Source: an uncultured delta proteobacterium (GTDB lineage Bacteria; Myxococcota_A; Polyangia; Polyangiales; Polyangiaceae). From it: a stretch of 64,000 bases of DNA. Both the position numbers and the translations under genes were made by a program. The stretch lies in the NCBI GenBank assembly GCA_963696385.1, contig CAVOKF010000007.1:448001-512000 (forward strand), given 5' to 3'. The notes under the pieces were generated by a model. The model ran no database searches. It was not told the DNA's origin and worked only from the letters and a program-made list of their open reading frames with translations. Each line of letters starts with the position of its first letter. Within the stretch, counting starts at the first letter, position 1. This document shows positions 6,586 to 40,534 of the stretch, piece after piece.

Positions 6586-6608
6586 AAGTCATAAGCCGAG
6601 GAGGGCGC

Positions 6609-6866
6609 GTGATCGTAAAAATTCTCTGTGGAGTCGCTGTCGGTGTCCTGATCGGCATTGGATGCCGCTTCTTCGAGATCCCGCTTCCAGGGCCGCCCGC
6701 AATCCTAGGCGCGTTTCTAGCCGTCGCCATGGCGACCGGTTACACCGTGACGGACAAGGTCCTCTCGGCGAGGACGCGAGCCCGCGCCACGCTGGACCCT
6801 CTGCACGAATCGAACCTCGAAGCGCCAAGGGACTCTACGGAGGATTCCCCGCTGCGCGGCAGATGA
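6609..6866 (+). CDS. XapX/DUF1427 small membrane protein
   Basis: IGIGCRFFEIPLPGPPAILGAFLAVAMATGY. Confidence 0.8.
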   Translation: MIVKILCGVAVGVLIGIGCRFFEIPLPGPPAILGAFLAVAMATGYTVTDKVLSARTRARATLDPLHESNLEAPRDSTEDSPLRGR

Positions 6867-7002
6867 CAGTCCTCATCCCGATTTAGCCTAGTCCTCGACC
6901 CGTTGCGCGCAGCTCGTCATCGCCGCAGCCGACCGACCCAGTCACCTCTGCTCGCTGCAAGCGATGTGGGTGAGAAGCTCGCGGTCGGAAAACGGTCGGC
7001 CC

Positions 7003-8181: not shown

Positions 8182-8370
8182 CGTTGTTCTCCCGACGACC
8201 GCTGGTTCTTGGCCGTCGCGAGTACACTGTACGCATAGGTCGAGCCGATCAAGGCCGCCTCGCGACGAACGTACCGATTCTGTACTACGGCAGATTGGCG
8301 CGAATCCCACTCGAATGGCCGCCTCGGCTCCTGAACGCCGCGCTCGCTCCGCTTGCACGTCAGACGGCCA

Positions 8371-8386
8371 TCTGTACTAGTACAGA
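8371..8386. promoter_or_regulatory. Perfect 16-bp palindromic operator TCTGTACTAGTACAGA
   Basis: Abuts regulator start codon; related GTAC-based sites at about 8222-8232 and 8270-8289. Confidence 0.65.
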
Positions 8387-8387
8387 G

Positions 8388-17002: not shown

Positions 17003-18601
<1,599 letters not shown>

Positions 18602-18836
18602 CGGACGCGAGGATAATGGATCCGCGCGCCGGCATCCCGCAAAGGAAGAAAGGCCTCTTGGCGCGGTCCAATTTGCCTCATCCAACCCGAACGACCCACC
18701 TCGGGCCGCCAAACGGCTCAAACAGACCGAGCGACAGACTGGCCATCGGCGAAACGCCCCCGATTCCGCGCCGACCGAGGCCGAGGCACCCCCGTGGGGC
18801 GCGGAGGGCCGGTGGAGCTACACTGGGTGGCGCGTC

Positions 18837-19481
18837 ATGCCCGAACCCACCGACCGCCAAGTGCAGGAGCGCATGGGCCAGAGCTATGCTCTCGACCGGC
18901 TTTGGGGTGAGACGATGGGTTTGACGTCCGGCGACACCAAGGAAAAGCCCCTGCGGGAAGTCATCGCCGTGCTGGAAGCCACGGGAACGGCCTACGCCGT
19001 GATTGGCGGCATCGCGATGCAGATTCATTCTTCGGAGCCCCGAACCACGCTCGACATCGACCTCGCGGTGCGGTTTTTTGCCGACGTGCCGTCCGATGCG
19101 CTCGCCAAGGCGGGCTTCGCGCATGAGGGTCGCTATGCGCACAGCGACAATTGGCGAGCGCCCGGGATGGGGCCCCGGGTCGAACGCGTCCCCGTGCAGT
19201 TCTCGGCCGAAGACGTGGGCATCGAGGAGGCGATCGCTCGGGCTCGGGTCGTCGACGCGGGCGGCTTTCGACTTCGCGTCGCGGCTCCCTTCGACCTGCT
19301 CGTCCTCAAGCTCGCGGCCGCCGAAGAGCCCAGACGTCGGCCAACCAAGCGGCTCCAGGATATGACCGACATTGTCCTGCTATCCAAGGAATTCCCCGAG
19401 GTCGCCGCGGCATTCCCAGACCTCCAGGAGCGGGTCAACCGCCTGGCGGCGGATCTGCTCACCGTGGACCGGGGCGAGTAG
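18837..19481 (+). CDS. Nucleotidyltransferase-superfamily protein (AbiEii/DUF6036-like)
   Basis: YAVIGGIA, PRTTLDIDL, LLVLKLAA, QDMTD; start could be 18915. Confidence 0.75.
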   Translation: MPEPTDRQVQERMGQSYALDRLWGETMGLTSGDTKEKPLREVIAVLEATGTAYAVIGGIAMQIHSSEPRTTLDIDLAVRFFADVPSDALAKAGFAHEGRYAHSDNWRAPGMGPRVERVPVQFSAEDVGIEEAIARARVVDAGGFRLRVAAPFDLLVLKLAAAEEPRRRPTKRLQDMTDIVLLSKEFPEVAAAFPDLQERVNRLAADLLTVDRGE

Positions 19482-20029
19482 ATGCCATGTTGCTGGCGTC
19501 GGTGACGGTCGTAGCGATACCGCGCCGGGGGAGGCCAGGAAGAAGGGAGCGAAGGGGCGGCGCGGTGGCTCGTCGTCGGCACGCTGCGAGGAAAGGCCAA
19601 AACGCCGGGGCGGTGGCGACCTGCCGCGATGCCGCCGACGAGCACGAGGGCAGAGCGTCTCCTCGCGTGGAGCCGGCACAAGGCTGCGTCATGATGAGCA
19701 GCAAAGGGCCTCGGGGGTGTTCCTCGGGCCAACGACCGGTCGAGCCGGCGAGCGTGCTCGACTCCACGGAGGAGACATGAAGTATCTTGGATTGGATGTG
19801 CACGGGAAAGCAACCGTGTTTTGTCTGCTCAACGCGGAGGGCGAAGTCGTCGAGAGGGGCAGCCTGCCGACGACGGCGCCCGATTTGACGAAGCTGATCC
19901 AGAGGCTCTCGTCGATCGACACGCTGCTCTGCGGTCAGGAGGTGGGGACGATGACCCACTTTGTCCATGACGTCGTGACGAGCGCGGGAGCGAAGATCCT
20001 GTCGTTCAACGCGCAGCATCTTCGGATGA
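19480..20029 (+). mobile_element. Truncated IS110-family copy (left end plus first ~84 codons, ATG 19777)
   Basis: 19479-20029 matches 30729-31278 apart from one extra G; YLGLDVHGK RuvC-like start. Confidence 0.9.
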
Positions 20030-20942: not shown

Positions 20943-21106
20943 GTTGTGTCCTTGCGGCACGGCTGCGGGGCGGGGAGTACGAGGGGGGGGTCTGGCGGGG
21001 GGGGCGTGCGAGAGGGGCGGGTCGCGGCGGGCGGCGGTGGCATTCGGCAACAGTGCGTGAAGTCGACGCGTGACTCGGGCAGCGTCGCGGTCAGGAGGAA
21101 GACCTG

Positions 21107-21520
21107 ATGAATCGAACGAGTATCGGGGCAACGGGCGCTCTAGAAAGTCTGCGCGGGCGGATAGAGCGGTGGCGAGCCGGATGCGGAGGCAAGCGGTCGA
21201 GGGTGCCGCAGGAGCTGTGGAACGCGGCGATCGAGGTGGCTCGCCGCGAAGGGGTGTGGGCGACGTCGCGGGCGACGCGTTTGAATTACCAAGGGCTGAA
21301 GGACCGGATGAGCCAAGCGTCGACGGGTTCGGCGATCGAGACGACGTCGCCGTCGTTCATCGAAGTGGCGATGCCGGCGGCGAGGACGGCGGACGGGTCG
21401 AGCCGGACGGTGATCGAGCTCGAGGGTCGAGGCGGAGAGCGGCTGCGCGTGGAGGTGACGGGCGCGAGCGGGTTGGACGTGGTCGGATTGGCGCACGCCT
21501 TCTGGAGACGCGAGCGATGA
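21107..21520 (+). CDS. tnpA: IS66 accessory protein (TnpA-like)
   Basis: RIERWR..RVPQELWNAAIEVA..LNYQGLK..FIEV; ATGA-coupled to tnpB. Confidence 0.75.
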   Translation: MNRTSIGATGALESLRGRIERWRAGCGGKRSRVPQELWNAAIEVARREGVWATSRATRLNYQGLKDRMSQASTGSAIETTSPSFIEVAMPAARTADGSSRTVIELEGRGGERLRVEVTGASGLDVVGLAHAFWRRER

Positions 21521-21894
21521 TCCAGCTCACGCCGCAGATGCGGATTCTGGTTGCGGTGGAGCCGGTGGACTTTCGGCGGGGGATCGACGGGATGTGCCGG
21601 GTGTGCCGGCAGATCTTGTCGAGCGATCCGTTTTCGGGAGCAGTGTTCGTATTTCGAAGTCGTCGGGGGACCGCGATTAAGATTTTGGCGTATGATGGGC
21701 AGGGATTCTGGCTCTGCCAAAAGCGTTTGTCGCAGGGTCGATTTGCACATTGGCCACGAAGCGGCGCTGGCGACGAGAAGACTCGCCAGCTGCTGGCGCA
21801 CCAAGTGCAGGTGCTGCTGATGGGTGGCAATCCGGAGGCGACGCAGGCGGCGAGCCCGTGGCGTTCCGTGACGCCGGACGTCGCGGCGGCGTAA
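21517..21894 (+). CDS. tnpB: IS66 accessory protein TnpB
   Basis: EPVDFRRGIDG, VFVFRSRR..IKILAYDGQGFWLCQKRLSQGRF. Confidence 0.92.
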   Translation: MIQLTPQMRILVAVEPVDFRRGIDGMCRVCRQILSSDPFSGAVFVFRSRRGTAIKILAYDGQGFWLCQKRLSQGRFAHWPRSGAGDEKTRQLLAHQVQVLLMGGNPEATQAASPWRSVTPDVAAA

Positions 21895-21915: not shown

Positions 21916-23640
21916 CTAGGCGGCGGCACGCGTATCGTCGCCGCCGCCGCTCGGCGAGGCGCCGCGCCGTGCGAGGGTGGCCTTGTAGTTCCAGGGGAGC
22001 CAGTCGCCGGGAGCCTCGGCGACGGCCTTGGAATGGCGTTGCAGCGCGGTGAGGTAATCGAAGGGATTTTGGTGGTGCAGCTCGGCGGTGTGGATGAGGG
22101 TCATATAGATGTCGCCGACGCGCGCACCGAGCTCGCTTCTGTAAAAGAACGACACGTTTCTCAACCGAATCGCCATCTTGAGGACACGCTCGCACAGGTT
22201 ATTGTCGAGCGGGGCTCCCGGAACACGGAGAAAAACCGTGAATTTGTCCCACCGTTTGAGGAAATAGTGGAAGGCCTGCCCGAGGTCGGAGTGGGGCTCG
22301 ATGCGCTTTTCGTCGAGCTGAGCGGTCATCCACTTCTGCAGATCCCCCATGACGGGCGCGCTGAGTCGCTGGTGCACCCGTAATCGCTCGTCGTCCGAGA
22401 GGCCTTGCTTTTTGCAGTCGTGGTCGACCTTGTAAACCGCCGCGAGCCGCTCGAGAAGCGCGAGGCACTCGTCGGGGTAGTTGGCGACCTCGTCGACGAC
22501 CTTGCGTCGCCCGTGGGAGATGCAATTGATCTCGATGACGTCATGGCCGTCGGGGACGTTGCGCGAAAGGGCATCACTCATGAGCAGAGGGACAGGCCGG
22601 TCTGGGGCTCGTTGTTTCAGCAGCTCGGCGAGGTTTTCTCCCGCATGCTTTCGCCCCGTGAAAAATAGCGCGATGACGCCGAGTGACGCGATGATCGAGA
22701 CGATGGCGGTCGTGAACAAGCCTGTGCGCTCGGGGGCCTCGAGTGTTCCTTTCGCGAGCAAGTCGGCGCGGCGCTTGCCCATGAGGCTCAAGATGCGCAT
22801 GTGGCTATCGTCGACGTGCAAGAGCTCGGCCTGGGCGGCGATGCGCTTGAGCTCCTTGTAGACCGGCTCGACCCGATCGACGCGGTCGCGCAGGACATCC
22901 CACTGGGTCGACGCAGGGACGGGCGTACCGAGATTGTCCTGCAGCTTCTCGAGTCGATGGAAGGGAACGCCCGCTCCGTAGTGCATCACGGCGATCATGC
23001 TGCTGGCGGACTCGTCGCACTTTTCTCCCTGGGCCTCGGGCGGCGGACGAGCGGTGAACACGTGGCCGCAGGCGCCGCAGCGAAGCTGCTTGCAGTGAAA
23101 GCAGGCGGCCCCCAGCGGAGCCCGCCCGACGATCCGAACGAGGGTCGCGGGGGCGGCCAGCTCGTAGACACGGCCTTGTGTGCAGAGCGGGCACGAGTCT
23201 CCCCGCCGCAGCGACTCGTGATCCACGGTGACGTGCTGCGCCGCGCGATAGGCGGAGGCGGGCACGCGTCCGTGACCCTTGCGCTTTTCTTTCGTGGGGG
23301 GCGCCGATGGCTCCGGCGCATTCGCCGCGGCCGCGGGGGTGGCGCTGGGATCGCTCGCGGGCGCGTCTTGCGGCTCGACCGCCGGATGGGCCGTCTGCGA
23401 CGCAGGGTTGGCCACGTCGGCCTTGATGTGAGCGGTCTTCTCATTGCCCGTGAGTCCGAAGAGGCGCCGCACCCGCGTCAGCGTGGCGTGGGTCTTGCGC
23501 AGCTCGCGGGTCATCTCGATCACGGTCGTCGCAAGCGCTTCGATGAGGTGGTAGTCGTCGTCACAGACGACCGCCCGGATGCGCTCCAGCATCGGCGGCA
23601 GGTCGTTCAGGTCGACGTCACGGACGGGCGTGCGATCCAC
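21916..23640 (-). CDS. tnpC: IS66 family transposase
   Basis: RKGHGR, Zn-finger CPLC..CGAC, HVDD, MSD, CISHGRRK, DNNLCERVLK; GTG 23640 abuts the upstream stop. Confidence 0.9.
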   Translation of the reverse strand: MDRTPVRDVDLNDLPPMLERIRAVVCDDDYHLIEALATTVIEMTRELRKTHATLTRVRRLFGLTGNEKTAHIKADVANPASQTAHPAVEPQDAPASDPSATPAAAANAPEPSAPPTKEKRKGHGRVPASAYRAAQHVTVDHESLRRGDSCPLCTQGRVYELAAPATLVRIVGRAPLGAACFHCKQLRCGACGHVFTARPPPEAQGEKCDESASSMIAVMHYGAGVPFHRLEKLQDNLGTPVPASTQWDVLRDRVDRVEPVYKELKRIAAQAELLHVDDSHMRILSLMGKRRADLLAKGTLEAPERTGLFTTAIVSIIASLGVIALFFTGRKHAGENLAELLKQRAPDRPVPLLMSDALSRNVPDGHDVIEINCISHGRRKVVDEVANYPDECLALLERLAAVYKVDHDCKKQGLSDDERLRVHQRLSAPVMGDLQKWMTAQLDEKRIEPHSDLGQAFHYFLKRWDKFTVFLRVPGAPLDNNLCERVLKMAIRLRNVSFFYRSELGARVGDIYMTLIHTAELHHQNPFDYLTALQRHSKAVAEAPGDWLPWNYKATLARRGASPSGGGDDTRAAA

Positions 23641-23641
23641 G

Positions 23642-24517
23642 TCAGTACCCACCGAGCAGGCGTTTTCGGAAGTCGCCGACCAGCGGATATCCGAACAGCT
23701 GTTTGAGGGAACGATTCGCGGCATGCGTCTGGTCGTCTTTTCCGCGGCCGGTCGTGATGCCCAAAACGGTCCAGTTGGCCGCGCGGTAGCAGGTGCCACG
23801 AAAACGATCCGGATCGACGAACGTTTCGGTGAAGTAGATCGGATGCCGGTAGACTCGCTGCCAGTCGTCCGAAAGCCGGCGCGAAATGGCGCCGAGCAGA
23901 TGCGACGCCAGATGCGGCACCTTCACCCACGGCAAAATCAGAAACCGGCTCTGGTAGGCGACAAACCGAATATGGGCCCTTCGCTGCTCCTTGGACCAGC
24001 CGATGTAGCGATCCCGAGGCCCCAGATGCCGCGCGGCCGACGACCAGCAGAAACACGCGATCGGCTGTCCGGCCGCCGATACCAGGTACTTGAGGTGCTC
24101 GCCGACCGGATGCGTGTACCCCAGATAGTGATGCTGCTGGACCAGCGACTTGACCAGCGACTCCTCGGGCGTGCGTCGAACCTGCCGAATGTCCAGGGGA
24201 CCGAGCTCCGCGAGCGGAACCGCCAGCGGGCGCGCCGGGACATCCACATGATCCACGACCGCGTGCCGACGCGGCTGCTGACTCCGCCATCGCGCCGGCG
24301 GCAGCTCCACGTGGCCTTCCCGGTGCAATCGCAGCATCAGCCCGCGACAGACCGCATCGCACAACGTCCCGTTGGGTTGCGCCCAACCCCACGCCTCACA
24401 AACCTTGAACGACAACGCTCGGCGACTGGTCCCCGGACTCGCGGCGATCAGCTCTCGCAGAAACGCCACGTCGCCGGCGCGCACCTCGCGTCCTCGATAT
24501 CGAAGCAATGCCTCCAT
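23642..24517 (-). CDS. DUF4338 / DruA-like protein
   Basis: HHYLGY, RDRYIGWS, RFLILPWV..HLASH, ETFVD..GTCYRAANW..TTGRG. Confidence 0.88.
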   Translation of the reverse strand: MEALLRYRGREVRAGDVAFLRELIAASPGTSRRALSFKVCEAWGWAQPNGTLCDAVCRGLMLRLHREGHVELPPARWRSQQPRRHAVVDHVDVPARPLAVPLAELGPLDIRQVRRTPEESLVKSLVQQHHYLGYTHPVGEHLKYLVSAAGQPIACFCWSSAARHLGPRDRYIGWSKEQRRAHIRFVAYQSRFLILPWVKVPHLASHLLGAISRRLSDDWQRVYRHPIYFTETFVDPDRFRGTCYRAANWTVLGITTGRGKDDQTHAANRSLKQLFGYPLVGDFRKRLLGGY

Positions 24518-24629
24518 GGGCGCGATCCGTATCGCGTCATTTTTTAGAACGCAAGCTCTATTTTACACCCACGCCTCCGCGTCACGACCGCTCACCGCAG
24601 TGTTGCCGCAAGGTCACCTTACGTTGCAG

Positions 24630-25784
24630 CTACGGGACGGGCGCGATGCCCGTGCTGCGCCTCACGGTTGACGAAGCAAAAAAACCGCCGCACTCGTCCT
24701 TGAGGCGGCATGACGCGCACTCATCAAGGTAAAGGTTTTTCCAGTCCGAGATGCTCTTTCGTGCAAATCGGTGAAGGACCATGGGGAGCACGCAGAGCTG
24801 GTGGTTGTAAATGGAGACCTTGAATCCCGCCCGGTCCAGACTTCGGGTGGCATCGACAAGTTGGCGCTGGTACTCGACGGGATCGACCCACAACGCATCT
24901 GCATTCGTCTTGGCAAACCCGGTGAGTTCGAGGCCCATGAGGGCCACATGATCGGCGAACAGAAGATTCCGCGCCAGAAATTCAGCGAACGCAGGGAGGC
25001 GCGCATACGTGTCGCGGTGAATGACAAAGCGAATCTCAACGCGGACGCGGCGGCGTTTGAGATTCAGAATGCCGCGGACAGTTTCGTCAAACGCGCCCTT
25101 GGCTTGCACGACGTAGTCGTGCTCCTCGGGTAAGTCCGAGTACAGCGGAATCCCGATCATTAGGTCCGGGTGCCCCACGTCGGCCAAGGAGCGTGCGAAC
25201 CCAGCGTCCGAAAAGCGGCGGCCGTTGGAGAGGACGTGCACTGCCGTTCGAGGAAGCATGCGCTTCATCAGATCGAGAAGCTGCACGAGGTGGTCCCCCA
25301 GCAGGGCAGGCTCGCCGCCGCTGAATCCGATCTCCTTGGTGTCCGGCGAGACCAGCGGAATCACGCTTTTCAACTCATGGATGCGCCAGAGGTCATCTCC
25401 GGACCTCGGCGGCTGCGAGCACATCACACAATAATTGTCGCACCGCTCTGTCAGCAAAAAGGTATTGGAGTTCGAAGCAAGTCGATAGAGCGTCGTGAGG
25501 TTGCGGCGGGCCGGCTCGACTCGTACCACGTCACCGTGAGCCAAATACCGCAGTTCTGGCGCAAGAACGTAGCTGTCCCGGCGGTCCGCGCCCTGCATTT
25601 CATGGTGGAGCAGGTATCCACGAAAGCCCGTTGGCAAAACAGCGACTGGCTCCCTGACGAGCAGAATCTCGGTCTCTCGTTCGACACGTGAGGACTCGGG
25701 CTGATCGCAGATCCGACCGACGAAGGAGTAGGCCGACACGTCCGCAAGGGGACGCAAGCCGCGCACTGAAAGCTTCAAAAGCAT
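24630..25784 (-). CDS. hxsC: His-Xaa-Ser system radical SAM maturase HxsC
   Basis: TERCDNYCVMCSQPP, SGGEP, VALMGLE.TGFA, SISDWKN..C..C....CGGFF. Confidence 0.9.
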   Translation of the reverse strand: MLLKLSVRGLRPLADVSAYSFVGRICDQPESSRVERETEILLVREPVAVLPTGFRGYLLHHEMQGADRRDSYVLAPELRYLAHGDVVRVEPARRNLTTLYRLASNSNTFLLTERCDNYCVMCSQPPRSGDDLWRIHELKSVIPLVSPDTKEIGFSGGEPALLGDHLVQLLDLMKRMLPRTAVHVLSNGRRFSDAGFARSLADVGHPDLMIGIPLYSDLPEEHDYVVQAKGAFDETVRGILNLKRRRVRVEIRFVIHRDTYARLPAFAEFLARNLLFADHVALMGLELTGFAKTNADALWVDPVEYQRQLVDATRSLDRAGFKVSIYNHQLCVLPMVLHRFARKSISDWKNLYLDECASCRLKDECGGFFASSTVRRSTGIAPVP

Positions 25785-25789
25785 CGCAT

Positions 25790-27247
25790 TCAGATCCATC
25801 CGAGAAGGGTCTGTCGCACCGCGGAGTCGCCCTCAAGAAGCCCAATCACATGGCGTAGCGCCGCCATCTGTTTGGTGCAGAAATCGCTGAACGCTTTGTG
25901 CCCGACTGGGTCACCTTGTGTGACCATGTGAAACACGGGGTCGGCGCCGCAGTACGGCAAAAACGGGCAGTCATTGCACATAGGCGCTCCCTCCGGCATC
26001 GATTCGTCCAAGACAGAGAGGAGGCTATCGGACGTCAACATCGTCTCGTAGCTGTCCGTATCGAGATGGCCGAGCCGGAACGACCGGTCCCCCATCTCAG
26101 CGAGCATGCGACCCTCATCCGAGGCATACACCGAGCCATCGTAGTTGTAGACTATCGCGCCGATCGCAATTCCAGCGGGGGACTGAAGATCGACGTACCG
26201 CGATCCCGTTGGCGAGAGAAGTTTTTGCAGAAGGATCGATGTAAACTCCTCTCGGAGTTGATAGCCGGCCGCGTTGATCCTGAGGATGTGGTCAAGGCCG
26301 CGCTTGAAAAAAGCGATCCAGTCCTCAATGGTACAGCGCCGGAGGAGCCTCGTGCGCGCCGCAAACCCGTAGGGACTCAGGTTCCGCAAGAAAATGCTGT
26401 GGAAGCCTTGTCGAACGTATTCATCGATAATCTCTTCTGGTCGCATGAGGCTCGCAGGCGTTGTCGTCATGAGTGCGGAGACGCACTCGGCACCGAGCGA
26501 TTCTCGTGCGCGACGGATGCTCTCGATCGTCGTCTGATGGCTGTGACCTCCCCGCTTCGGTCGCTGTGCATCGTGGATCTCCTCGGGACCGTCGAGAGAA
26601 GTCGATAGGTGGACTTCATTCAGCTTGCAGAAGGCAAGTACATCGTCGGAGAGCCTCGAGAGGTTGGAGGCGATGACAAATCGGAGGTCCCTGCCATGCG
26701 CCCCGTTTAGCAGTCTGGCGCGCTCGACGATGTGTCGGATCAGATCGAAGTTCAAGAGTGGCTCACCCCCCTGAAACTCGATCTTGAGGTGTTTGGATGG
26801 GCTTCGAAATGTGAGTTCGAGCGCCGCATCGGCGTGCGCCTGGGTCATGTCAAACTGGAGCCGATCCTCGGTTTGGCGAGAAACCTGGCAGTAGTGACAG
26901 GAGTGGTCGCAACGCAGGGTTACGACAAAGATATGCAAGCCCGTAAACGACGCGACGTCCTCCGCGCGCGTGCGGTACTTTAGCGCCAGAAGGTCAAGGG
27001 CGACTCGAGACCCATCGTCGAACAGAAAATGGCGTGCCTTGAGCGCCTTGTAGACATCGTGCCCCGGATCGAGCCGATGCTCGATGAAGGCGACGAGGTC
27101 GTCGCGGCTGAGTAGCACGTACTCGCCGACATCGTTCGTGACGATGTATCGCTGGTCATCGATAGGCCCAAATCGGAACGGAAGCAGTCGATACCCAGCG
27201 GCCGGCCGATACGCTGCACGGTCACGAAAGGCAGGGCCGAGAGTCAT
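25790..27247 (-). CDS. hxsB: His-Xaa-Ser system radical SAM/SPASM maturase HxsB
   Basis: LLPFRF, LHIFVVTLRCDHSCHYCQVS, EFQGGEP, DLQSPAG, ASDEGRML, CNDCPFLPYCGADP. Confidence 0.92.
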   Translation of the reverse strand: MTLGPAFRDRAAYRPAAGYRLLPFRFGPIDDQRYIVTNDVGEYVLLSRDDLVAFIEHRLDPGHDVYKALKARHFLFDDGSRVALDLLALKYRTRAEDVASFTGLHIFVVTLRCDHSCHYCQVSRQTEDRLQFDMTQAHADAALELTFRSPSKHLKIEFQGGEPLLNFDLIRHIVERARLLNGAHGRDLRFVIASNLSRLSDDVLAFCKLNEVHLSTSLDGPEEIHDAQRPKRGGHSHQTTIESIRRARESLGAECVSALMTTTPASLMRPEEIIDEYVRQGFHSIFLRNLSPYGFAARTRLLRRCTIEDWIAFFKRGLDHILRINAAGYQLREEFTSILLQKLLSPTGSRYVDLQSPAGIAIGAIVYNYDGSVYASDEGRMLAEMGDRSFRLGHLDTDSYETMLTSDSLLSVLDESMPEGAPMCNDCPFLPYCGADPVFHMVTQGDPVGHKAFSDFCTKQMAALRHVIGLLEGDSAVRQTLLGWI

Positions 27248-27609
27248 TGGCGCCGAATGAGGTCGGTTTTTGAGAAAGCATGAGCCAGAAGGAGCGCACG
27301 CAGCGCCCTCGTCTCTTCAGCGATCTGCTCTCGCAACTCCTGGTCGAGCAGATCCTGGAAGAACAGGCGGACGACGTCGAGCGCCTCGTTATTGTTGGTT
27401 GCGCGTGGGAAGAGAAACGTGATCGGCAGCGAGGCGATGTCTACGCTGCCTAGGACGACCGTGCACTTCCCGGCGAGCTTGTATGCCGCCTTCTGCACCG
27501 CGGACAATCGATAGCAGCGCAAGTCGACCTCGGCCCGTACGAATCCGTCTTGAAACTGGAGAGGTTCGCTGCTGCCACTCCGTGTTTTCGCATCCGCGTC
27601 GGTCGGCAT
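27244..27609 (-). CDS. hxsD: His-Xaa-Ser system protein HxsD
   Basis: Y..SAVQKAAY, FQDLLDQELREQIAEET..LRALLLAHAFS; ATGA-coupled to hxsB. Confidence 0.85.
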   Translation of the reverse strand: MPTDADAKTRSGSSEPLQFQDGFVRAEVDLRCYRLSAVQKAAYKLAGKCTVVLGSVDIASLPITFLFPRATNNNEALDVVRLFFQDLLDQELREQIAEETRALRALLLAHAFSKTDLIRRQ

Positions 27610-27626
27610 GGGGCGATTCCGATCTA

Positions 27627-28163
27627 CTACCAGTCGATCTCGACGACGCCAGTTTGCCCCTCGCTGAGGTCGACGGTCCTGGCCTCGACGCCCACGAACC
27701 GGTTCTCCACGCGGATGACATGCGAGCCAGACTTGAGCGTGAGCGTACCACTGGCGTCCTGACCAACGAATTGACCGTCGACGAATATGCGACCGCCCGG
27801 GTACGCGACGAACGACACCGTCGCGGGCTTCGCGGGTGGCGGTGGCGGGGGAGGCGGGACCGGGGGTGGCGGGGCCGGCGCGGGACTCGGTTCGTATCCA
27901 CCTCCGCCACCTCCGCCACCTCCTCCGGACGAATGGCTGCGATGCGACGAATGCGAGCTGTGGGAGCTGTGGGCCAGGTAGCCGGCTGCCTGGTCGGACG
28001 GCACGAGCAACAGCGGTGGGTCCGTCTCGCCGTCCTCGTTCCGGCGCCGGGCGACCTGAGCCGCTGCTTCGGGGATCAAGAGATCGGACGAGGCGGCAGC
28101 CCCGAGCAGCGCGAGTACCGCCGCGCCGAGCGAGGTAAGCTGAGTCGCCCCCGGCTTGCGCAC
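27627..28163 (-). CDS. hxsA: His-Xaa-Ser repeat precursor HxsA with Gly/Pro linker and PEGA-like domain
   Basis: Hydrophobic N-terminus, AHSSHSSHSSHRSHSS, G10, poly-Pro, PGGRIFVDGQFVG..LKSGSHVIRVE. Confidence 0.88.
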   Translation of the reverse strand: MRKPGATQLTSLGAAVLALLGAAASSDLLIPEAAAQVARRRNEDGETDPPLLLVPSDQAAGYLAHSSHSSHSSHRSHSSGGGGGGGGGGYEPSPAPAPPPPVPPPPPPPPAKPATVSFVAYPGGRIFVDGQFVGQDASGTLTLKSGSHVIRVENRFVGVEARTVDLSEGQTGVVEIDW

Positions 28164-28369
28164 AGCTTACGATCGACGGCTCGGAGGGCGACGTCAAGAG
28201 TGGTCCGGTGGACCGTTGATCATTCAGTTCGAGCGCTGCCGGCACGGCGCCCCGAAACAACGCCCCAATGGCGACAGTCCTTTCGGTGCGGTGTGCTTGC
28301 TCCTTGCGGACCGACCTTCCGCTACGCGATGATGATTGTTGCGTTTAATCCTCTCGCGGAGGGAGCCTC

Positions 28370-30676
28370 GTGACCGATTCGAGTCCGTCTGCAGCGACTT
28401 GCCCGTCGTGCGGAGATCCCGCGTCTGTCGAGGCGGCAACTTGCCCATACTGCCACGCTCCGCTTGTGTGGGGTGACTCGGCACCGAAGATCCCGAACCG
28501 AAGCGTAAGAGAGGCTGCAGCGTCCTGGGCCAAGTCTGTCTTCGGGGCGCCCTGGGACTTCGCCAACTTGATTCGCAGCGTGCAAGTGCGGGACGAAGTC
28601 CTGGAGCGGCTCCTCACCGTCATCGTTCGCCGAGAACTGCGGGAGCAGCGGATTCCCACGAATCAGCGAAGAAGCTCGGCGGTTCGTCTCGACCGTAGCA
28701 CGGTGGATCCGTTCGCCATTGCCGCGGACGCGCTGCGCGCCAGCAGCGAGTACGTGACAGCCTGCGCGGGCTGCGGCGGAGCGGGCTCAGCGTCGTGTGA
28801 ACAGTGTCGAGGTGGCGGTCGCGCCGCCTGCCGTAACTGCAATGGGAGTGGCCGGGAGCGCAAGTACTACAAGAAGAGCAGTCGCTTGGTGAAGTGCGGT
28901 GTTTGTCGTGGTGGCGGCACCGTTGCTTGCGGGACGTGCGAAGGTCGTGGCGCCGTGACTTGCCAGGGTTGCACGGGGAGTGGTCACCAGCTCGCGTGGC
29001 TCGCTTATGACGAAACTTCTCGCTGCGACGTCACGGTCGTGCCCAATAGCCCGATTGTCGCCGCACACCCACAGCTCAGGAAGCCTCGGGCTCTCGCGGC
29101 GAGCGAGCTTTCGGGGTTCGGGATACTCGCTTCGATCGATGCGCGAGGGCCGGTGCGGGTCGACGGGAGGGATGGCGTCCACTCGCCGCTCCTGCGAGAG
29201 CAGGCGTCCTCGCTCGATCGGCGGTTGGAGCGAATCAACTTCCAACAATACCTGAGACTTGCGGTCATCCGACGCGACGCGATGTACGAAATGTGCGGGA
29301 CTTTGGGCGTCCTTGTTCTTTCGGGTGGCGATCTCCTCGGAGCACGAACGCCCGCGGCACTGCGACCGATTCAACGGCGGCTCTATCTCTGGCTGGCCTC
29401 GGCTATTGGCGCGGCCGTGGCTGCCCGCGCTCTTACGGCTGCTCTACTCGGACCCACCGCGTATTTCGCACGGACTAATGGCGTGGTGGTCGTCGCGTCC
29501 TGGACGGGAGCGGCACTGGCTCTCGTGTTCCTAGGCGCCGCTCTTCGTGCGCTTCGGCCCGGCTTCAAGGTGGGAAGGCTGTCGGTCTTCGAGAGGATTT
29601 CGGGACTGGGTGCGGTAAGCGCTGTATGCATCGCTGCCGTTGCCGCCCTCGCCGGGCGACCGCGGGTTGGCGAAGTTCAGCAGGTGCTGTCTGCCGGAAA
29701 TATCCGACAGGCCAAGATGATCGTCGAGGCTCTCGTGGCCACGAAGGGGGAAACCACGGAGGTTCGTGAAGCAGAAGACGCCGTCACGCTCGCCGATGCA
29801 GAGAATCTGTCCGGCGAGCAGAAGCTCAAGGCGTTCGCGCAAGTAGCGTCAAGGGGGGGAAGCCGGGCGGGACAGGCGGCGCAGGCGGCGCGCACGGCGC
29901 AGCTGCGGGAGATTCAGCAGGCTATCGACGGACGGAACCCCGTCGACGCTGTCGCGAACATCGATCGCTGGTTTCCAAACTGGAAGTCCGATCCGCAGGT
30001 GTCGGCCAAACGCGCTTTGGCCGATGACGTGGCGTACTCGTTATGCGCAGACGCGCCGTGCCGGTTCGTCAGTGCCACTGGGGCGGACAGCGCGTGGAGT
30101 ACCCCCGAGCGGGCGGCACGAGCCAAAGCTTCACGGGAAGAAATCATGTCGAGCCTGTCATTCTCCGAGGTTCCGGGCGAATCACAGCTGGGTCGCCTTC
30201 AGCGGCTGCGCTCGTTCATCACGGTCGCGACCCAGCCTGCGATTCTGGCAAGTGGCGATGCCGAGATCGCCGTAAAAGCCAAGGCCGCAAGCGAATGGGC
30301 AAGCAGCGAGCGTGCGAGGGTGGCGCTCCTGAACGCCGATGAGCCCGTCGCATCTGAGCTACTGCAAGCGTCGTTCACTGAACGGGAAGCCAAGATCGCG
30401 ACGGCTACGGTCGACGGAATAGCCGTCTCCTTGTCGCTCGATATTCAGAAGAAGTGTCGCGGGATCTACATGGTCGGCGCAACGCCAGGAGCGCGTCAGC
30501 TCGATGCAAACGCTGAGGCCACCCACTTGCTGTCCCAGGCCGTTGGGCACCCGGCAGTCGTAAAGCCCGTCAGTAACGGTGTGACGTCGCGCTGGTCGGA
30601 GGGTGCGATCCCCGTGCTTGCGCGTTGGAAAGACGGAAGTCTCGTGGAGCTGAGGGTCGGGGACGCGACGCCCTAG
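28370..30676 (+). CDS. Membrane protein with N-terminal zinc ribbon and six CxxCxGxG repeats
   Basis: CPSCG..CPYC, six DnaJ-type repeats, about three hydrophobic helices, long helical C-terminus; 768 aa. Confidence 0.8.
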   Translation: MTDSSPSAATCPSCGDPASVEAATCPYCHAPLVWGDSAPKIPNRSVREAAASWAKSVFGAPWDFANLIRSVQVRDEVLERLLTVIVRRELREQRIPTNQRRSSAVRLDRSTVDPFAIAADALRASSEYVTACAGCGGAGSASCEQCRGGGRAACRNCNGSGRERKYYKKSSRLVKCGVCRGGGTVACGTCEGRGAVTCQGCTGSGHQLAWLAYDETSRCDVTVVPNSPIVAAHPQLRKPRALAASELSGFGILASIDARGPVRVDGRDGVHSPLLREQASSLDRRLERINFQQYLRLAVIRRDAMYEMCGTLGVLVLSGGDLLGARTPAALRPIQRRLYLWLASAIGAAVAARALTAALLGPTAYFARTNGVVVVASWTGAALALVFLGAALRALRPGFKVGRLSVFERISGLGAVSAVCIAAVAALAGRPRVGEVQQVLSAGNIRQAKMIVEALVATKGETTEVREAEDAVTLADAENLSGEQKLKAFAQVASRGGSRAGQAAQAARTAQLREIQQAIDGRNPVDAVANIDRWFPNWKSDPQVSAKRALADDVAYSLCADAPCRFVSATGADSAWSTPERAARAKASREEIMSSLSFSEVPGESQLGRLQRLRSFITVATQPAILASGDAEIAVKAKAASEWASSERARVALLNADEPVASELLQASFTEREAKIATATVDGIAVSLSLDIQKKCRGIYMVGATPGARQLDANAEATHLLSQAVGHPAVVKPVSNGVTSRWSEGAIPVLARWKDGSLVELRVGDATP

Positions 30677-31025
30677 CCCCTGAGCCTGTAGGGTGTAATC
30701 ACTGACGTAGTGGTTTCGTCGGTGCGGATAGATGCCATGTTGCTGGCGTCGGTGACGGTCGTAGCGATACCGCGCCGGGGGAGGCCAGGAAGAAGGGAGC
30801 GAAGGGGCGGCGCGGTGGCTCGTCGTCGGCACGCTGCGAGGAAAGGCCAAAACGCCGGGGCGGTGGCGACCTGCCGCGATGCCGCCGACGAGCACGAGGC
30901 AGAGCGTCTCCTCGCGTGGAGCCGGCACAAGGCTGCGTCATGATGAGCAGCAAAGGGCCTCGGGGGTGTTCCTCGGGCCAACGACCGGTCGAGCCGGCGA
31001 GCGTGCTCGACTCCACGGAGGAGAC

Positions 31026-31965
31026 ATGAAGTATCTTGGATTGGATGTGCACGGGAAAGCAACCGTGTTTTGTCTGCTCAACGCGGAGGGCGAAGTCGTC
31101 GAGAGGGGCAGCCTGCCGACGACGGCGCCCGATTTGACGAAGCTGATCCAGAGGCTCTCGTCGATCGACACGCTGCTCTGCGGTCAGGAGGTGGGGACGA
31201 TGACCCACTTTGTCCATGACGTCGTGACGAGCGCGGGAGCGAAGATCCTGTCGTTCAACGCGCAGCATCTTCGGATGATCGCGGCGTCGCGCAAGAAGAC
31301 CGACAGGCGCGACGCGTACTGGATCGCCAAGAGCCTTCAGACCGGACTGATGCCTCACGCCGTCCATATCCCGACGACCGAAGTACGACGCCTACGCAGC
31401 TTGCTGGCACAGCGCCGAGCCCTTGCGGCGGAGCGCAAGCGATGGCTGCTGCGTGCCCGGTCCCACTTGCGCGAGATCGGGACCCCCATCGCCAAGGGTG
31501 CGGGCAAGATCACCCGAAAGCTCGAACAACTGCTCGCGTGCCCCGATGGGCTGGACGCGGACCGAGCCGACGCTCTCGAGCTCTGCGCCCGTCAAGAACA
31601 GCAGCTGCGCGCGGAGCTACGCAAGCTCGAGAAGACTCTCTACGGCGAGGCTGGTGCCGTCCGTCCATCAGAGTGGCGAATCGACCCGTTTGGGACCCAT
31701 TACCAAAGAAGGCTCCAGCGCACTTCGGAGCGTGCTGGTCCAGGCGGGACACGTCTTGCTGTTCCGCTGCGGTTCCGACGACGCCCGCCCGCTCCGCGAG
31801 CTGCCAAAAAGGGTCCAGACCGCCCGCGTGCGTCGCAAGATTGCAGTCGTGGCCGAGGCCCAGTTCATCGTGCGCACGGCCTTCTACATCTTACGAGACG
31901 GCACGACGTACGACCCGCAGCGGCGCCGTACCTATGTGCAGGAGGAGAAAGCAAAAGTCGCATAG
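31026..31965 (+). pseudogene. IS110 transposase with internal deletion/frameshift near 31650
   Basis: GLDVH, E, KKTDRRDA (DEDD) in one frame; LVPSVHQSGE..GPITKEGS..LR in another; IPGxG segment missing. Confidence 0.88.
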
Positions 31966-35058: not shown

Positions 35059-35114
35059 GCGGCACTGACAGATCCTGTCAGGAGCGTGGGTCGCCGACCA
35101 CCGGCTCGGGGATG
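35059..35114. repeat. Left arm of 56-bp inverted repeat, containing operator CTGACAG-N3-CTGTCAG
   Basis: 50/56 identity by manual alignment to reverse complement of 35990-36045. Confidence 0.8.
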
Positions 35115-35321
35115 CGGCAAGAGCCGTGCTTATGGGCCCCTATAAGGGGCACGGCGCGGACGCGCGGACCGATCCCGCTCGACGTGGTCGGCGGGCTATC
35201 CGACCCGAACGCCGCGCGCGCGAAAGGAACCGGCGCAAGGCCGCCCGCCAGGCGTGGAAGAAGAGTCGTAAGGCGGACCGCAACAGACGACTGCCGTTGC
35301 TGTACGCTTCGCTCCGCGTCC

Positions 35322-36026
35322 GTGTCGCGTTCCAGTCGACTCCTCCAGCTTCTGCAGGTCCTGCGCCGCCGACGTAGCCCCGTGCGTGCCGAGGCCATCG
35401 CCGGCGAGCTCGGCGTGTCGGTGCGCTCGATCTATCGCGACGTCGCGACCCTCCGCACACAAGGAGCCTCGATCGATGGCGAGGCCGGCGTGGGATATAT
35501 CCTGCGTCCGGGATTCCTGCTGCCGCCGCTCATGTTCTCCGAGGACGAGATCGAGGCGCTCGTCCTCGGCCTACGCCTCGCCCACGAGGACGGTGACCCG
35601 ACTCTCGCGAAGGCGGCCGTCGAAGCCGACGCAAAGATCCGCGCCGTGCTGCCCGCGCAACTCCTCGCCGACGCCGCACCGCTCCTCGCAGGTCCGCGGC
35701 CGGCCCGCGCGCCCGATCGGATCGACCTCGCGCAAGTGCGGCGCGACATCCGCGCAGAGCGCAAGGTCTCCATCGACTACCTGGATCTGAGCGGCGCGGC
35801 GACGACCCGGATCGTCTGGCCTTTCGCGCTGGCCTTCTTCGAGCGCGCCCGTGTGATCCTCGCCTGGTGCGAGGACCGCCAGGACTATCGCTCGTTTCGC
35901 GCCGACCGCGTCGGCGCCTGGCGAGCGCTCGCCGATCGCGCGCCGCGCACGCGCGCCGCTCTTCTTCGGGAGTGGCGCGAGAAGAACGCCATTCCCGAGC
36001 CGGAGGTCGGCGGCCCACGCTCCTGA
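35322..36026 (+). CDS. YafY-family HTH-WYL transcriptional regulator
   Basis: RLLQLLQVLRR, ELGVSVRSIYRD, GEAGVGY..LPPLMF, AWCEDRQDYRSFRADR. Confidence 0.92.
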   Translation: MSRSSRLLQLLQVLRRRRSPVRAEAIAGELGVSVRSIYRDVATLRTQGASIDGEAGVGYILRPGFLLPPLMFSEDEIEALVLGLRLAHEDGDPTLAKAAVEADAKIRAVLPAQLLADAAPLLAGPRPARAPDRIDLAQVRRDIRAERKVSIDYLDLSGAATTRIVWPFALAFFERARVILAWCEDRQDYRSFRADRVGAWRALADRAPRTRAALLREWREKNAIPEPEVGGPRS

Positions 36027-38686: not shown

Positions 38687-40531
38687 GTGACCGAGATCCT
38701 CTGGGACGGAAAGTACCGCGACCACGCGAGGATCGCGCCGGTCCGAATCGAGCTGCCGTTCCAGACCGTGGAGACGGTCAACAGCGCTCGCGATCGTGCG
38801 CGCACCCTTGAGCTCTTCGCTTCGGGCGGGTCCACGGAGTGGCGGAACCGGCTGATCTGGGGCGACAAGAAGTACGTTCTGCCCAGCTTACGCGCCGAGT
38901 TTTCTGCCAAGATCGACCTCATCTACATCGACCCGCCGTTCGACACGGGCGCCGACTTCTCGGTTACCGCCGACGTTCCGGAAACCGACCAGCTGCTGCC
39001 GAAGCGGCCGTCGATCATGGAGATGAAGGCGTACCGAGACACCTGGGGAGTGACGCCTGACGAGCGAGCTCGGGGCGTCACGTCGAAGGACAAGTACCTG
39101 CGCTGGTTCTCCGACGCAGCGTTTCTCCTCCGCGACCTTCTCGCCGACGCCGGCCTGCTCTTTGTTCACCTCGACGACAACATCGGACACGAGGCGAAGG
39201 TGGTCCTCGACGAAGTCTTCGGACCCGAGCGGTTCCGCGGAGAGATCGTCTGGCAGCTCGGTACGGGCGCGAAGAGCCGCAAGTTCTTCTCGATCCAGCA
39301 CAACATCATCCTCGTCTACTCGGGTGGGGAAACCTGGACGTTCAATCATGAGACGAACATTGCGCGCGAGCCGTTTGCTGAGGGGAGCCTCGCGACGCAC
39401 TTTCGTCACATCGACGAAAACGGGCGACGCTATCGCGTGCGCACGGTAAACGGGAAAGACTATCGCTACTACGCCGATGAAGGTCGTTTGATCGGGAGCG
39501 TTTGGACGGACATCTCCTCCATGACCGCCAACTCTCCGATCCTCGACGAGGGCACCGGTTACCCCACTCAGAAGCCGGAAAAGCTTCTCGAGCGCATCAT
39601 CGCGGTATGCAGCAACAAGAACGACCTCGTGCTCGACTGTTTCTGCGGTTCCGGAACGACCGCCGTAGTTGCGGAGAAACTCGGTCGCCGATGGATCGCG
39701 TGCGACTTGAGCCGGTTCGCCATCCACACGACGCGAAAGCGTCTACTGGCGGTCTCCGGCGCGAAGCCGTTCGTCGTCCAGAACCTCGGCAAATACGAGC
39801 GAAGCGCCTGGGCCGCGGCAGAGTTCAAAGCGGATCACCAAGCGCGCGAGGATGCCTACCGGCGCTTCATCCTCCAATTCTTCCGGGCCGAACCGCTCTC
39901 TGGCTACGTATGGCTCCATGGGGCCAAGGCAGGCCGCTTCGTCCATGTCGGCGCCGTGGACGCGCCGGTCACGGCGTCGGATGTAAAGGGCATAGCGCGT
40001 GACGTTCTTCGCGCCGCAGGTCGAGGTGGAGGAGCGGTGGACATCCTCGGATGGGAATTCGCCTTCGAGCTGAACGAGACCGCCAAGCAGATCGCCGCGG
40101 AAGCGAAGGTCCACGTTCAGTTTCGGCGCATTCCCAGAGACGTTCTGGACAAACGAGCGGTGGAGCAAGGCGACATTCAAGAGAGAGACTTTCTTGAGTT
40201 GCGTGTCTTTTCTACGAAACAACAACAAAAGGGCCGCGAGCTGACCGTTTCTCTTACCGACTTCATGATGCCATCCGAGGACCTTCCGGAGGACATCCAG
40301 TCGCTCGTGACTCATTGGTCTCAGTGGGTCGACTACTGGGCGATCGATTGGGACTTCAGGGGCGACACGTTCCACAACCAGTGGCAGTCTTACCGCACCC
40401 GCGACCTACCGAACGTCGAGTTGTCCGCGAAGCATGTGTACAAGGAACCCGGTAGCTACGTCGTCATGGTGAAGGTCATCGACCTCTTGGGCTGCGACAC
40501 GACGACGACGATCCCCGCGAAGGTGGAGTGA
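38687..40531 (+). CDS. mod: Type III R-M DNA methyltransferase (Mod)
   Basis: IYIDPPF, YPTQKPEKLL, DCFCGSGTT, VKVIDLLG. Confidence 0.93.
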   Translation: MTEILWDGKYRDHARIAPVRIELPFQTVETVNSARDRARTLELFASGGSTEWRNRLIWGDKKYVLPSLRAEFSAKIDLIYIDPPFDTGADFSVTADVPETDQLLPKRPSIMEMKAYRDTWGVTPDERARGVTSKDKYLRWFSDAAFLLRDLLADAGLLFVHLDDNIGHEAKVVLDEVFGPERFRGEIVWQLGTGAKSRKFFSIQHNIILVYSGGETWTFNHETNIAREPFAEGSLATHFRHIDENGRRYRVRTVNGKDYRYYADEGRLIGSVWTDISSMTANSPILDEGTGYPTQKPEKLLERIIAVCSNKNDLVLDCFCGSGTTAVVAEKLGRRWIACDLSRFAIHTTRKRLLAVSGAKPFVVQNLGKYERSAWAAAEFKADHQAREDAYRRFILQFFRAEPLSGYVWLHGAKAGRFVHVGAVDAPVTASDVKGIARDVLRAAGRGGGAVDILGWEFAFELNETAKQIAAEAKVHVQFRRIPRDVLDKRAVEQGDIQERDFLELRVFSTKQQQKGRELTVSLTDFMMPSEDLPEDIQSLVTHWSQWVDYWAIDWDFRGDTFHNQWQSYRTRDLPNVELSAKHVYKEPGSYVVMVKVIDLLGCDTTTTIPAKVE

Positions 40532-40534
40532 CCC

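Follow-up and report, generated by a model that had tools for sequence, protein, structure and literature searches.

The 64,000 nt stretch analysed here (below called the window, always meaning this whole stretch of DNA) comes from an uncultured delta proteobacterium of the phylum Myxococcota (contig CAVOKF010000007.1, positions 448,001 to 512,000) and contains a locus related to HXS, a system built around a His-Xaa-Ser (HxS) repeat protein, HxsA, and the maturation proteins HxsB, HxsC and HxsD. We propose, with a probability of roughly 55%, that the locus encodes a five-gene myxobacterial HXS variant, in which HxsA ends in a PEGA-like domain closed by an invariant tryptophan ("PEGA-W") and is docked through this domain on a 768-aa membrane protein, the product of the fifth gene. 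The gene content of the locus, the domain architecture of its products, the conserved adjacency of the hxsA and 768-aa genes, two gene fusions and a predicted interface were observed in this analysis. The new elements are the exchange of the HxsA anchor, the conserved membrane partner with its predicted interface, and a group of myxobacterial HxsB enzymes lying beside those of the HxsA2-type systems.

HXS has been described as a broad anti-phage system which interferes with the entry of phage DNA, and as the first defence to block this step (Li et al., Nat Commun 2026, PMC13128918). According to the text of that paper, the canonical HxsA acts in the periplasm as a protein effector; it combines a signal peptide with five HxS repeats and a peptidoglycan-binding domain, and mutation of the latter abolishes the defence. 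In the E. coli system HxsB, HxsC and HxsD must be present for the N-terminal processing and the periplasmic accumulation of HxsA, and a change of +8 Da has been mapped to its SHRSS motif (PMC13128918). The text of Li et al. contains no mention of PEGA, of any word beginning with Myxococc, of HxsA2 or of the word "fifth". A full-text literature search revealed no paper on a PEGA-type HxsA or an additional Hxs component; the supplements of Li et al. may list HxsA variants that are relevant to this point.

The locus consists of four genes on the minus strand and a divergently oriented fifth gene:

24630-25799, minus strand: hxsC, radical S-adenosylmethionine (SAM) maturase, 389 aa, match to TIGR03977
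25790-27247, minus strand: hxsB, radical SAM maturase, 485 aa, match to TIGR03978
27244-27609, minus strand: hxsD, 121 aa, ATG start at 27609, match to TIGR03976
27627-28163, minus strand: hxsA, PEGA-type HxS-repeat effector precursor, 178 aa, GTG start
28164-28369: intergenic region, 206 bp, separating hxsA from the divergent 768-aa gene
28370-30676, plus strand: fifth gene, 768-aa membrane protein with three transmembrane (TM) helices, no family assignment, divergent from hxsA

An earlier note on this DNA, made from the letters alone, had described the genes hxsA-D-B-C as intact and tightly spaced. This is borne out by a gap of 17 nt between hxsA and hxsD and by overlaps of 4 nt between hxsD and hxsB and of 10 nt between hxsB and hxsC. 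When compared with the NCBIfam equivalog models, HxsB matches the full length of TIGR03978 with 585.7 bits (cut-off 370), HxsC matches TIGR03977 with 385 bits (cut-off 267.9), and HxsD matches TIGR03976 with 68.9 bits (cut-off 50). The radical SAM motif CxxxCxxC was located by a motif scan at residue 113 of HxsB and residue 120 of HxsC; HxsC additionally has a C-terminal Cys cluster at positions 361, 364 and 370, and HxsD reads LLDQELRE where the motif LLNDYxLRE is expected. The profile comparison proposed in the earlier note is thereby favourable for the three maturation proteins, and it places HxsA below the cut-offs of both TIGR03979 and Pfam PEGA, as detailed below. PADLOC 2023, which lacks HXS models, returned weak viperin matches for HxsB and HxsC, and none for HxsA and the 768-aa protein. 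A promoter scan of the locus gave no promoter-like site, including no sigma-70-like site in the 206-bp gap, although a sigma-70 scan says little for a myxobacterium. Terminator-like sites were found by a simple scan at chance level only.

HxsA is built from a hydrophobic N-terminus, with the hydropathy peak at residues 9-23, and the following parts:

27927-27971, minus strand: five tandem HxS triplets, residues 65-79 (HSS HSS HSS HRS HSS)
27897-27926, minus strand: ten-Gly run, residues 80-89, exactly ten by script count
27825-27896, minus strand: Pro-rich linker, residues 90-113, with a conserved PPPPPKPA before the domain; predicted local distance difference test (pLDDT) 85-98
27630-27824, minus strand: PEGA-like beta domain with terminal invariant Trp (PEGA-W), residues 114-178

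The script count agrees with the five triplets, the ten-Gly run and the Pro runs listed in the earlier note; the latter comprise four (98-101) and eight (103-110) residues. A word-indexed search yielded 148 HxsA homologues at E <= 0.001, mostly from Myxococcota genomes and soil metagenomes and named "hypothetical protein" or "PEGA domain-containing protein" in their sources, once "HxsA". The 54 homologues that were aligned share the same architecture throughout. In the repeats, H68, S70, H71, S73, H74 and S76 are invariant among them; the length of the Gly run is not conserved, with the longest run being 2-7 residues in 19 other loci. All 54 match TIGR03979 at E <= 0.001 (best 6.4e-18). The HxsA of the window reaches 47.4 bits with this model (cut-off 121.65), its residues 17-120 falling on positions 13-112 of the 190-position profile, and 20 bits with the HxsA2 model NF038296 (cut-off 48), past whose repeats it extends by about 100 residues. 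As read from its sequence, HxsA, with its tandem HxS repeats, is probably an exported protein.

The earlier note had also seen the HxS core as fused to a PEGA-like beta domain, and this reading is upheld at the level of the family. Taken alone, the window copy matches Pfam PEGA (PF08308) with E = 0.098 and 13 bits, below the gathering score of 20.8, and 40 of the 54 aligned members match it at E <= 0.1 (best 7.3e-6). The AlphaFold2 model built from the 54-member alignment shows an all-beta domain, with block pLDDT values of 85 (residues 91-100) and 95-98 (residues 101-178), and a poorly ordered N-terminal half. Its structural neighbours in the Protein Data Bank (PDB), found by Foldseek, are small beta-sandwiches, namely 6hif_Y (E = 7.2e-4), 9k1u_B and carboxypeptidase regulatory-type domains; a sequence search of the PDB with the HxsA family gave chance-level matches only. 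The C-terminus of HxsA is PEGA-like, by both its family-level relationship and its beta-sandwich fold. In an exhaustive phmmer search with residues 112-178, 544 representatives passed E <= 0.001. Many of them were matched in 2-14 stretches and are read from their sequences as probable tandem PEGA-repeat proteins. The 37 rows with a single stretch comprise 19 proteins with tandem HxS, eight without HxS, seven short pieces, two fusions and one N-terminally cut protein. Among the 54 aligned sequences, P122, G123, G124, G134, D136, N154, G158, G172 and W178 are invariant. PEGA-W is a distinct subtype, characterized by its single copy, its own invariant set and the C-terminal W178.

No PG_binding domain was found in the window HxsA by the Pfam scan. 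Its alignment with the HxsA of Klebsiella and Rhizobium, both plasmid copies, covers the pre-repeat segment, the repeats and the Gly-Tyr stretch, beyond which the sequences diverge; these two end in PF01471 (PG_binding_1). The survey of HxsA C-termini suggested in the earlier note accordingly separates a PEGA-like domain, kept in all 54 aligned homologues, from the PF01471 domain of the Klebsiella and Rhizobium proteins.

The gene divergent from hxsA lies just outside the part of the stretch to which the earlier note was limited and was missed there; it is the most informative feature of the variant. Its 768-aa product contains the following regions:

28400-28453, plus strand: Zn ribbon with Cys 11, 14, 25 and 28, residues 11-28
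28763-28984, plus strand: six CxxCxGxG motifs, a DnaJ/BSD2-type Cys-rich zinc-finger region, residues 132-205
29387-29662, plus strand: three TM helices, residues 340-361, 369-393 and 409-431, assigned by hydropathy and helical in the model
29666-30319, plus strand: predicted periplasmic helical-repeat region, TPR-like, residues 433-650
30341-30673, plus strand: C-terminal beta domain, predicted docking site for PEGA-W, residues 658-768

The protein has 41 homologues, of which the named ones are all called "hypothetical". It gave no NCBIfam match and weak zinc-ribbon matches only in Pfam. The repeated CxxCxGxG motifs are those of a DnaJ-type Cys-rich zinc finger, and this region matches the profiles of BSD2 (E = 2.6e-4) and of the DnaJ Cys-rich domain 1exk (E = 0.0035), and by Foldseek the structure 6ekb (target TM-score, TMt, 0.70; 34% identity). 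A J domain was not found in the Pfam search at E <= 0.1. The AlphaFold2 model of the protein has a mean pLDDT of 87.6, and Foldseek found no full-length structural match for the whole model at E <= 0.001. VIA-align gave TPR matches with Z up to 10.1 (7cc7_A, root-mean-square deviation 2.0, 79 aligned residues), which are not decisive for helical repeats; this wide search covered mainly residues 340-597 and barely sampled the N- and C-terminal beta domains. The best score in the ESM Atlas was 0.76, to a Myxococcota cluster, which serves as a lead only. Segments rich in Lys and Arg precede the first TM helix (six residues) and lie between the second and third (five residues). These positive-inside positions fit a predicted topology with the N-terminus inside and the C-terminus outside, and the hydrophobic N-terminus of HxsA and the C-terminal fusions described below agree with it as well.

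The association of the 768-aa gene with PEGA-type hxsA is conserved. When genomes, one for each species, were scanned for proteins related to the PEGA-type HxsA, 17 loci emerged, from Polyangium, Sorangium, Archangium, Labilithrix, Corallococcus, Myxococcus, Byssovorax, Kofleriaceae, Nannocystis and metagenome-assembled genomes (MAGs); two loci from a phylum-wide search and the window bring the number to 20. A 768-family gene adjoins the PEGA-W gene in 20/20 loci, with -6 to 465 nt between the matches to the two genes. The arrangements are as follows:

Divergent, 768 and A-D-B-C on opposite strands: 8 loci
768>A-D-B-C: 6 loci
A>768>D-B-C: 1 locus
D-B-C-A>768: 4 loci, one of them ending at a contig edge
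A>768 with no HxS repeats and no D, B or C within 6 kb (L017), not Hxs-linked: 1 locus

Clustering of all open reading frames (ORFs) of the 20 loci gave the five families of the variant (HxsA, HxsB, HxsC, HxsD and the 768-aa protein) as the only widely common ones, present in 19, 18, 18, 16 and 15 loci under the filters used. The next real ORF family occurs in 5/20 loci; two clusters of 11 loci are opposite-strand shadow ORFs. The statement of the earlier note that the cluster holds no protease or transporter thus stands for the whole set, in which the clustering revealed no conserved protease, transporter or exporter family. In 23 other Hxs loci used as controls (those of Klebsiella, Rhizobium and Nostoc, an HxsA2-like locus and 19 further ones from myxobacteria) no match to the 768 family or to PEGA-W was found. 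The phylum-wide search for the 768 family detected it in at least 6 of 401 genomes, a lower bound with two candidates scored per genome; at least three of these proteins are full length, each encoded beside HxsB.

A contact between HxsA and the 768-aa protein is indicated by three independent lines: the adjacency that is kept through four arrangements, natural fusions and a predicted complex. Two metagenomic proteins of the 768 family, P0159 (774 aa) and P0204 (816 aa), carry a Pro-rich linker and a PEGA-W domain directly after the conserved C-terminus "...GDA.P". P0204 is 36% identical to the 768-aa protein of the window over residues 46-768, has an intact zinc-finger region, and its tail is 43% identical to residues 96-178 of HxsA. 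The predicted complex between residues 430-768 of the 768-aa protein and residues 90-178 of HxsA has an ipSAE interface score of 0.72 (0.71, 0.72 and 0.72 in the single runs), and the best of three controls scored 0.00. A score at this level is reached by 116 of 157 solved complexes and by 2 of 215 mismatched pairs, counts which are approximate here, as the alignments were made for this analysis. At least 97% of the contacts are the same between the runs, with pLDDT of at least 88 for the partner. On the side of HxsA the predicted interface is formed by residues 119, 121-125, 135-136, 153-157 and 177-178, six of them among the nine that are invariant in the domain, and it is more conserved than the remainder of the domain (0.80 versus 0.65, permutation p = 0.027). 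The contacts on the other side include Y700, R709, R752, E760 and P768. Searches of the PDB by sequence and profile with both families revealed no solved complex of like kind. The prediction supports the binding of the PEGA-W domain of HxsA to the C-terminal beta domain of the 768-aa protein.

The N-terminally cut metagenomic protein P0191 (151 aa) is possibly a third such fusion: its first residues resemble the C-terminus of 768-family proteins, and a PEGA-W domain closes it.

The relationships of the HxsB enzymes were studied with a maximum-likelihood tree of 38 sequences, from which the locus without HxsB (L017), a cut one (L020) and one with a split match (L022) were left out. In L022, a MAG derived from nanopore reads, the HxsB match at 6896-8327 is split and covers residues 7-274 only, probably owing to a sequencing-error frameshift or a broken gene. 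The 15 rows of the PEGA/768 type form one group (support 92/99; found in 93% of bootstrap trees). Its sister is the HxsA2-type enzyme of Nostoc (91/93), and a myxobacterial HxsA2-like locus follows next (80/84). Klebsiella and Rhizobium stand on long branches and their placement is unsure.

HxsB as such is widespread in the phylum: of the 401 genomes sampled, 144 have a match at E <= 1e-60, and 141 of them lie above the cut-off. Twenty HxsB loci were sampled from 19 of the 144 genomes, and 19 of the 20 belong to a different HxsB clade with about 35% identity, which is also separate in the tree (100/100). Short (HGS)n...W peptides are encoded in 9 of these 19 loci; the search pattern found no repeat peptide in the other ten. 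In L029, L031-L035, L038, L040 and L042, HxsB-like enzymes above the TIGR03978 cut-off stand beside peptides of 11-23 His-Gly-Ser-type repeats ending in Trp, and in L029 two such peptide genes occur in tandem. No close HxsC or HxsD was found in the 19 loci, where weak matches only were seen (HxsC at 22-28% in five loci, HxsD at 36% in one). These loci are of the HxsA4 type.

Pairs of a 768-type platform protein and a PEGA-W protein are also found apart from the Hxs enzymes. Besides L017, the genome G129 (locus L045) encodes a distant 786-aa paralogue of the platform at 5724-8084, with the same domain order and the same C-terminus "...GEVTP", which overlaps the start of a gene at about 8078-8473 for a small PEGA-W protein that begins with a hydrophobic segment and lacks HxS repeats; the pair is unlinked to the HxsB of that genome. 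In its simplest reading, this distribution results from the joining of an HxsA2-like repeat cassette to the secreted partner of a pre-existing platform/PEGA-W pair.

A relative of the N-terminal zinc-finger and TM part of the platform is encoded at 4387-6501 of L046 (genome G201), with a different C-terminus that is rich in Lys, Arg and Glu as well as in Cys. The next gene encodes a 1141-aa protein judged by eye to be of the kinase type, and HxsB was not found in the G201 genome.

The surroundings of the locus in the window contain mobile elements and genes of defence-related types:

18582-19481: AbiEii-like nucleotidyltransferase
21070-21894, plus strand: IS66 TnpB-like ORF
21916-23799, minus strand: IS66 DDE transposase
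23642-24517, minus strand: DruA-domain protein, 291 aa, 112 nt downstream of hxsC; Pfam DruA (Druantia), E = 6.3e-33
35112-36026: WYL/helix-turn-helix (HTH) regulator
38687-43153: type III methyltransferase and restriction enzyme pair

Two direct repeats of about 480 nt (19470-19948 and 30720-31197; 98-100% identical) stand about 11,250 nt apart; they represent the 5′ parts of elements of the IS110 family of insertion sequences (IS), and the left copy seems to be truncated after 19948. The 11.25 kb that they bracket hold the IS66 genes and the DruA-domain gene as well as the hxs operon and the 768-aa gene. The location of the two IS66 genes on opposite strands is unusual for a single intact IS66 and suggests two partial or nested copies. 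The G+C content over hxsB-hxsC (24500-27500) is 58-60%, compared with 63-72% in the flanks, which is consistent with horizontal acquisition. The WYL regulator, the type III restriction-modification (R-M) genes, the AbiEii-like gene, the DruA-domain gene and the IS elements all lie within about 15 kb of the hxs locus, which fits a mobile and defence-rich neighbourhood, although as evidence this is weak. The DruA-domain gene was considered as a sixth component and rejected, as it occurs in 0/17 related loci; PADLOC gave no match for it, and no other Druantia gene was noticed nearby. The window stretch is also contained in four soil-metagenome DNA runs of one study.

Judged from the homologous E. 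coli system, HxsA in the variant that we propose would have its HxS-repeat region modified and processed by the cytoplasmic HxsB, HxsC and HxsD, and would then be exported. The PEGA-W domain would stand in for the canonical peptidoglycan-binding anchor and dock on the periplasmic C-terminal beta domain of the 768-aa protein. In the latter, the Zn ribbon and the DnaJ-type zinc fingers would be cytoplasmic, followed by the three TM helices and by the TPR-like helices and the beta domain on the periplasmic side. The modified HxS array would thereby be tethered to the inner membrane, on its outer face, and not to the cell wall. In this position it would act like the canonical HxsA, most likely by hindering the entry of phage DNA. 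We infer the modification and export of HxsA, its docking in the cell and its anti-phage role from these comparisons, the last of them by homology with the published system. The earlier note had suggested a modified surface protein rather than a released peptide. A modified exported protein is indeed most likely, although this is not new, as it has already been published for the canonical HxsA (PMC13128918). With regard to the fusion of the HxS core to a folded domain, whose prior description for HxsA would count against the note, a fusion of this general kind is described in the text of the same paper, but not one with PEGA. The cell surface is not supported as the location; what was found indicates a protein of the periplasm that is docked on a partner in the inner membrane. 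The modification reported for the canonical system is not the crosslink of -2 Da named in the note but consists of +8 Da on SHRSS together with N-terminal processing (PMC13128918).

Several observations weigh against the proposed variant. Its function is assigned by analogy with the E. coli system, and the characterised system is distant, HxsB and HxsC being 31% and 37% identical to those of Klebsiella; the closest relatives of the enzymes come from HxsA2-type loci of putative function. The HxsA of the window scores below every HxsA equivalog cut-off, including those of HxsA2 and HxsA3. Its HxS array contains one Arg, compared with three in the repeats of the Klebsiella HxsA, and an electrostatic DNA-binding role is less obvious for this reason. 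As to the docking, the complex score expresses the confidence of a model and is no measurement, and the interface on the 768-aa protein is no more conserved than the remainder of its domain (0.57 versus 0.55, p = 0.37). The fusion protein P0159 lacks most of the zinc-finger motifs and could be a decay product of a 768>A arrangement. The defence-type neighbours are weak evidence in a region rich in IS elements. The PEGA-W/platform pairs of L017 and G129, which lack HxS repeats and linked Hxs enzymes, imply that the primary role of the pair may be unrelated to HXS. Starting from the last point, the 768-aa protein and its secreted PEGA-W partner might represent an older, general two-gene module spanning the envelope, onto whose secreted partner HXS grafted the HxS cassette. 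Beyond tethering, the platform would then couple to the cytoplasm what happens at the periplasmic array, for instance when phage DNA arrives, or it would accompany the precursor during its modification and export. We consider this version possible, if rather improbable; if true, it would be the first HXS system with a built-in transmembrane component.

The 768-aa protein might alternatively be a maturation or export factor, whose DnaJ-like domain holds the unfolded HxsA precursor for HxsB, HxsC and HxsD and passes it to export, while the periplasmic domain receives the PEGA domain transiently. The DnaJ/BSD2-type zinc fingers in a beta domain would suit such a role. So would the argument of Li et al. 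that the export and cleavage of HxsA are non-canonical and need dedicated helpers, and their finding that HxsA expressed alone forms inclusion bodies (PMC13128918). The protein nevertheless has neither a J domain nor an ATPase, the canonical and HxsA2-type systems work or exist without any 768-family protein, the fusions put PEGA-W permanently at the periplasmic terminus, and the pair exists without Hxs enzymes. We therefore regard a helper role as unlikely. The same occurrence of the pair without Hxs enzymes is a point in favour of a metal module, in which the His-rich array binds or senses periplasmic metal and the 768-aa protein stores or delivers it or reports metal status, with no part in phage defence. 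The five or more tandem His residues and the 16 zinc-type Cys in the N-terminal region of the 768-aa protein are in line with this, and the phage defence of this subtype is itself putative. Such a module is distinctly unlikely in view of the homology to a system with demonstrated broad anti-phage activity (PMC13128918), the R-M, WYL, AbiEii-like and IS neighbours, the structural DnaJ-type zinc-finger character of the Cys motifs, and the 20 loci, in which no metal transporter or metalloregulator is conserved.

The HxS core could finally be the product itself, excised and set free by a protease of the host whose gene lies elsewhere, with the PEGA domain and the N-terminal region serving as carrier and leader, as in a classical ribosomally synthesized and post-translationally modified peptide (RiPP). 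The relationship of HxsB and HxsC to the peptide maturases PapB, SCIFF maturase and GrrM (weak NCBIfam matches) points in this direction. It is joined by the pairing of the closest enzyme relatives (Nostoc, G258) with short HxsA2-type proteins ending right after the repeats, and by the proteolytic processing of the canonical HxsA (PMC13128918). The processed canonical product, however, keeps residues 48-214 including the anchor domain, which is needed for activity (PMC13128918). The lack of a conserved protease or exporter in the 20 loci argues against release as well, and the nine invariant residues of PEGA-W and a dedicated partner gene would be unexpected for a disposable carrier. A released peptide is thus very doubtful, and the five-gene variant with a docked HxsA remains our preferred reading. 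A concrete conserved membrane partner and a predicted interface with specific residues make the question of where the HxS array has to be positioned in order to function directly testable.

The locus resembles the canonical HXS system in its paired radical SAM enzymes and HxsD, and its HxsA resembles the canonical protein in the hydrophobic N-terminus, the conserved pre-repeat segment, the approximately five HxS triplets followed by Gly and Tyr, the low-complexity linker and the folded C-terminal domain. The two HxsA proteins differ in the nature of this domain, which is PG_binding_1 in the canonical and PEGA-like in the window protein. According to Li et al. (PMC13128918), 99.6% of HXS systems have the order D-B-C-A and more than 99.8% consist of four proteins, whereas the present genes are ordered A-D-B-C and accompanied by a fifth one in divergent orientation. 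The same source assigns 99.7% of the systems to Pseudomonadota, a share that is probably so high because PEGA-type HxsA falls below the family cut-off; the present locus extends HXS-type systems into Myxococcota.

The closest enzymes found are those of the HxsA2-type loci (NF038296), represented by plasmid p057_G of Nostoc sp. C057, with 59% identity for HxsB, 51% for HxsC and 44% for HxsD. These loci share the gene order A-D-B-C, and their HxsB is sister to the PEGA/768 group. HxsA2 itself has 96 aa and ends just past the repeats, in contrast to the window HxsA with its C-terminal domain, and no 768-family gene accompanies it. The HxsA4-type (His-Gly-Ser)n loci (NF038313) are likewise found in Myxococcota and combine an HxsB-like enzyme above the TIGR03978 cut-off with a substrate of HxS-type repeats. 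They differ by their separate HxsB clade and by their short (HGS)n peptides ending in Trp, and in the 19 sampled loci neither a PEGA domain nor a 768-family gene was present, nor any close homologue of HxsC or HxsD.

The Cys-rich region of the 768-aa protein shares its CxxCxGxG motifs, profile matches and 6ekb fold with the DnaJ/BSD2 domain. DnaJ has four such motifs, and the 768-aa protein has six; it differs from DnaJ further in having no J domain and in embedding the region in a three-TM protein with a large predicted periplasmic part. With the PEGA proteins (PF08308) the HxsA domain shares the family-level sequence matches and the all-beta sandwich, but it scores below the gathering score in the window copy, is single and Trp-ended, and stands apart by an invariant set of its own (PGG, D136, N154, W178) and by a partner dedicated to it. 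Across these systems the anchor of HxsA appears as a swappable module: none in HxsA2, a peptidoglycan-binding domain in the canonical HxsA, and a predicted protein-docking beta domain in the PEGA-W subtype.

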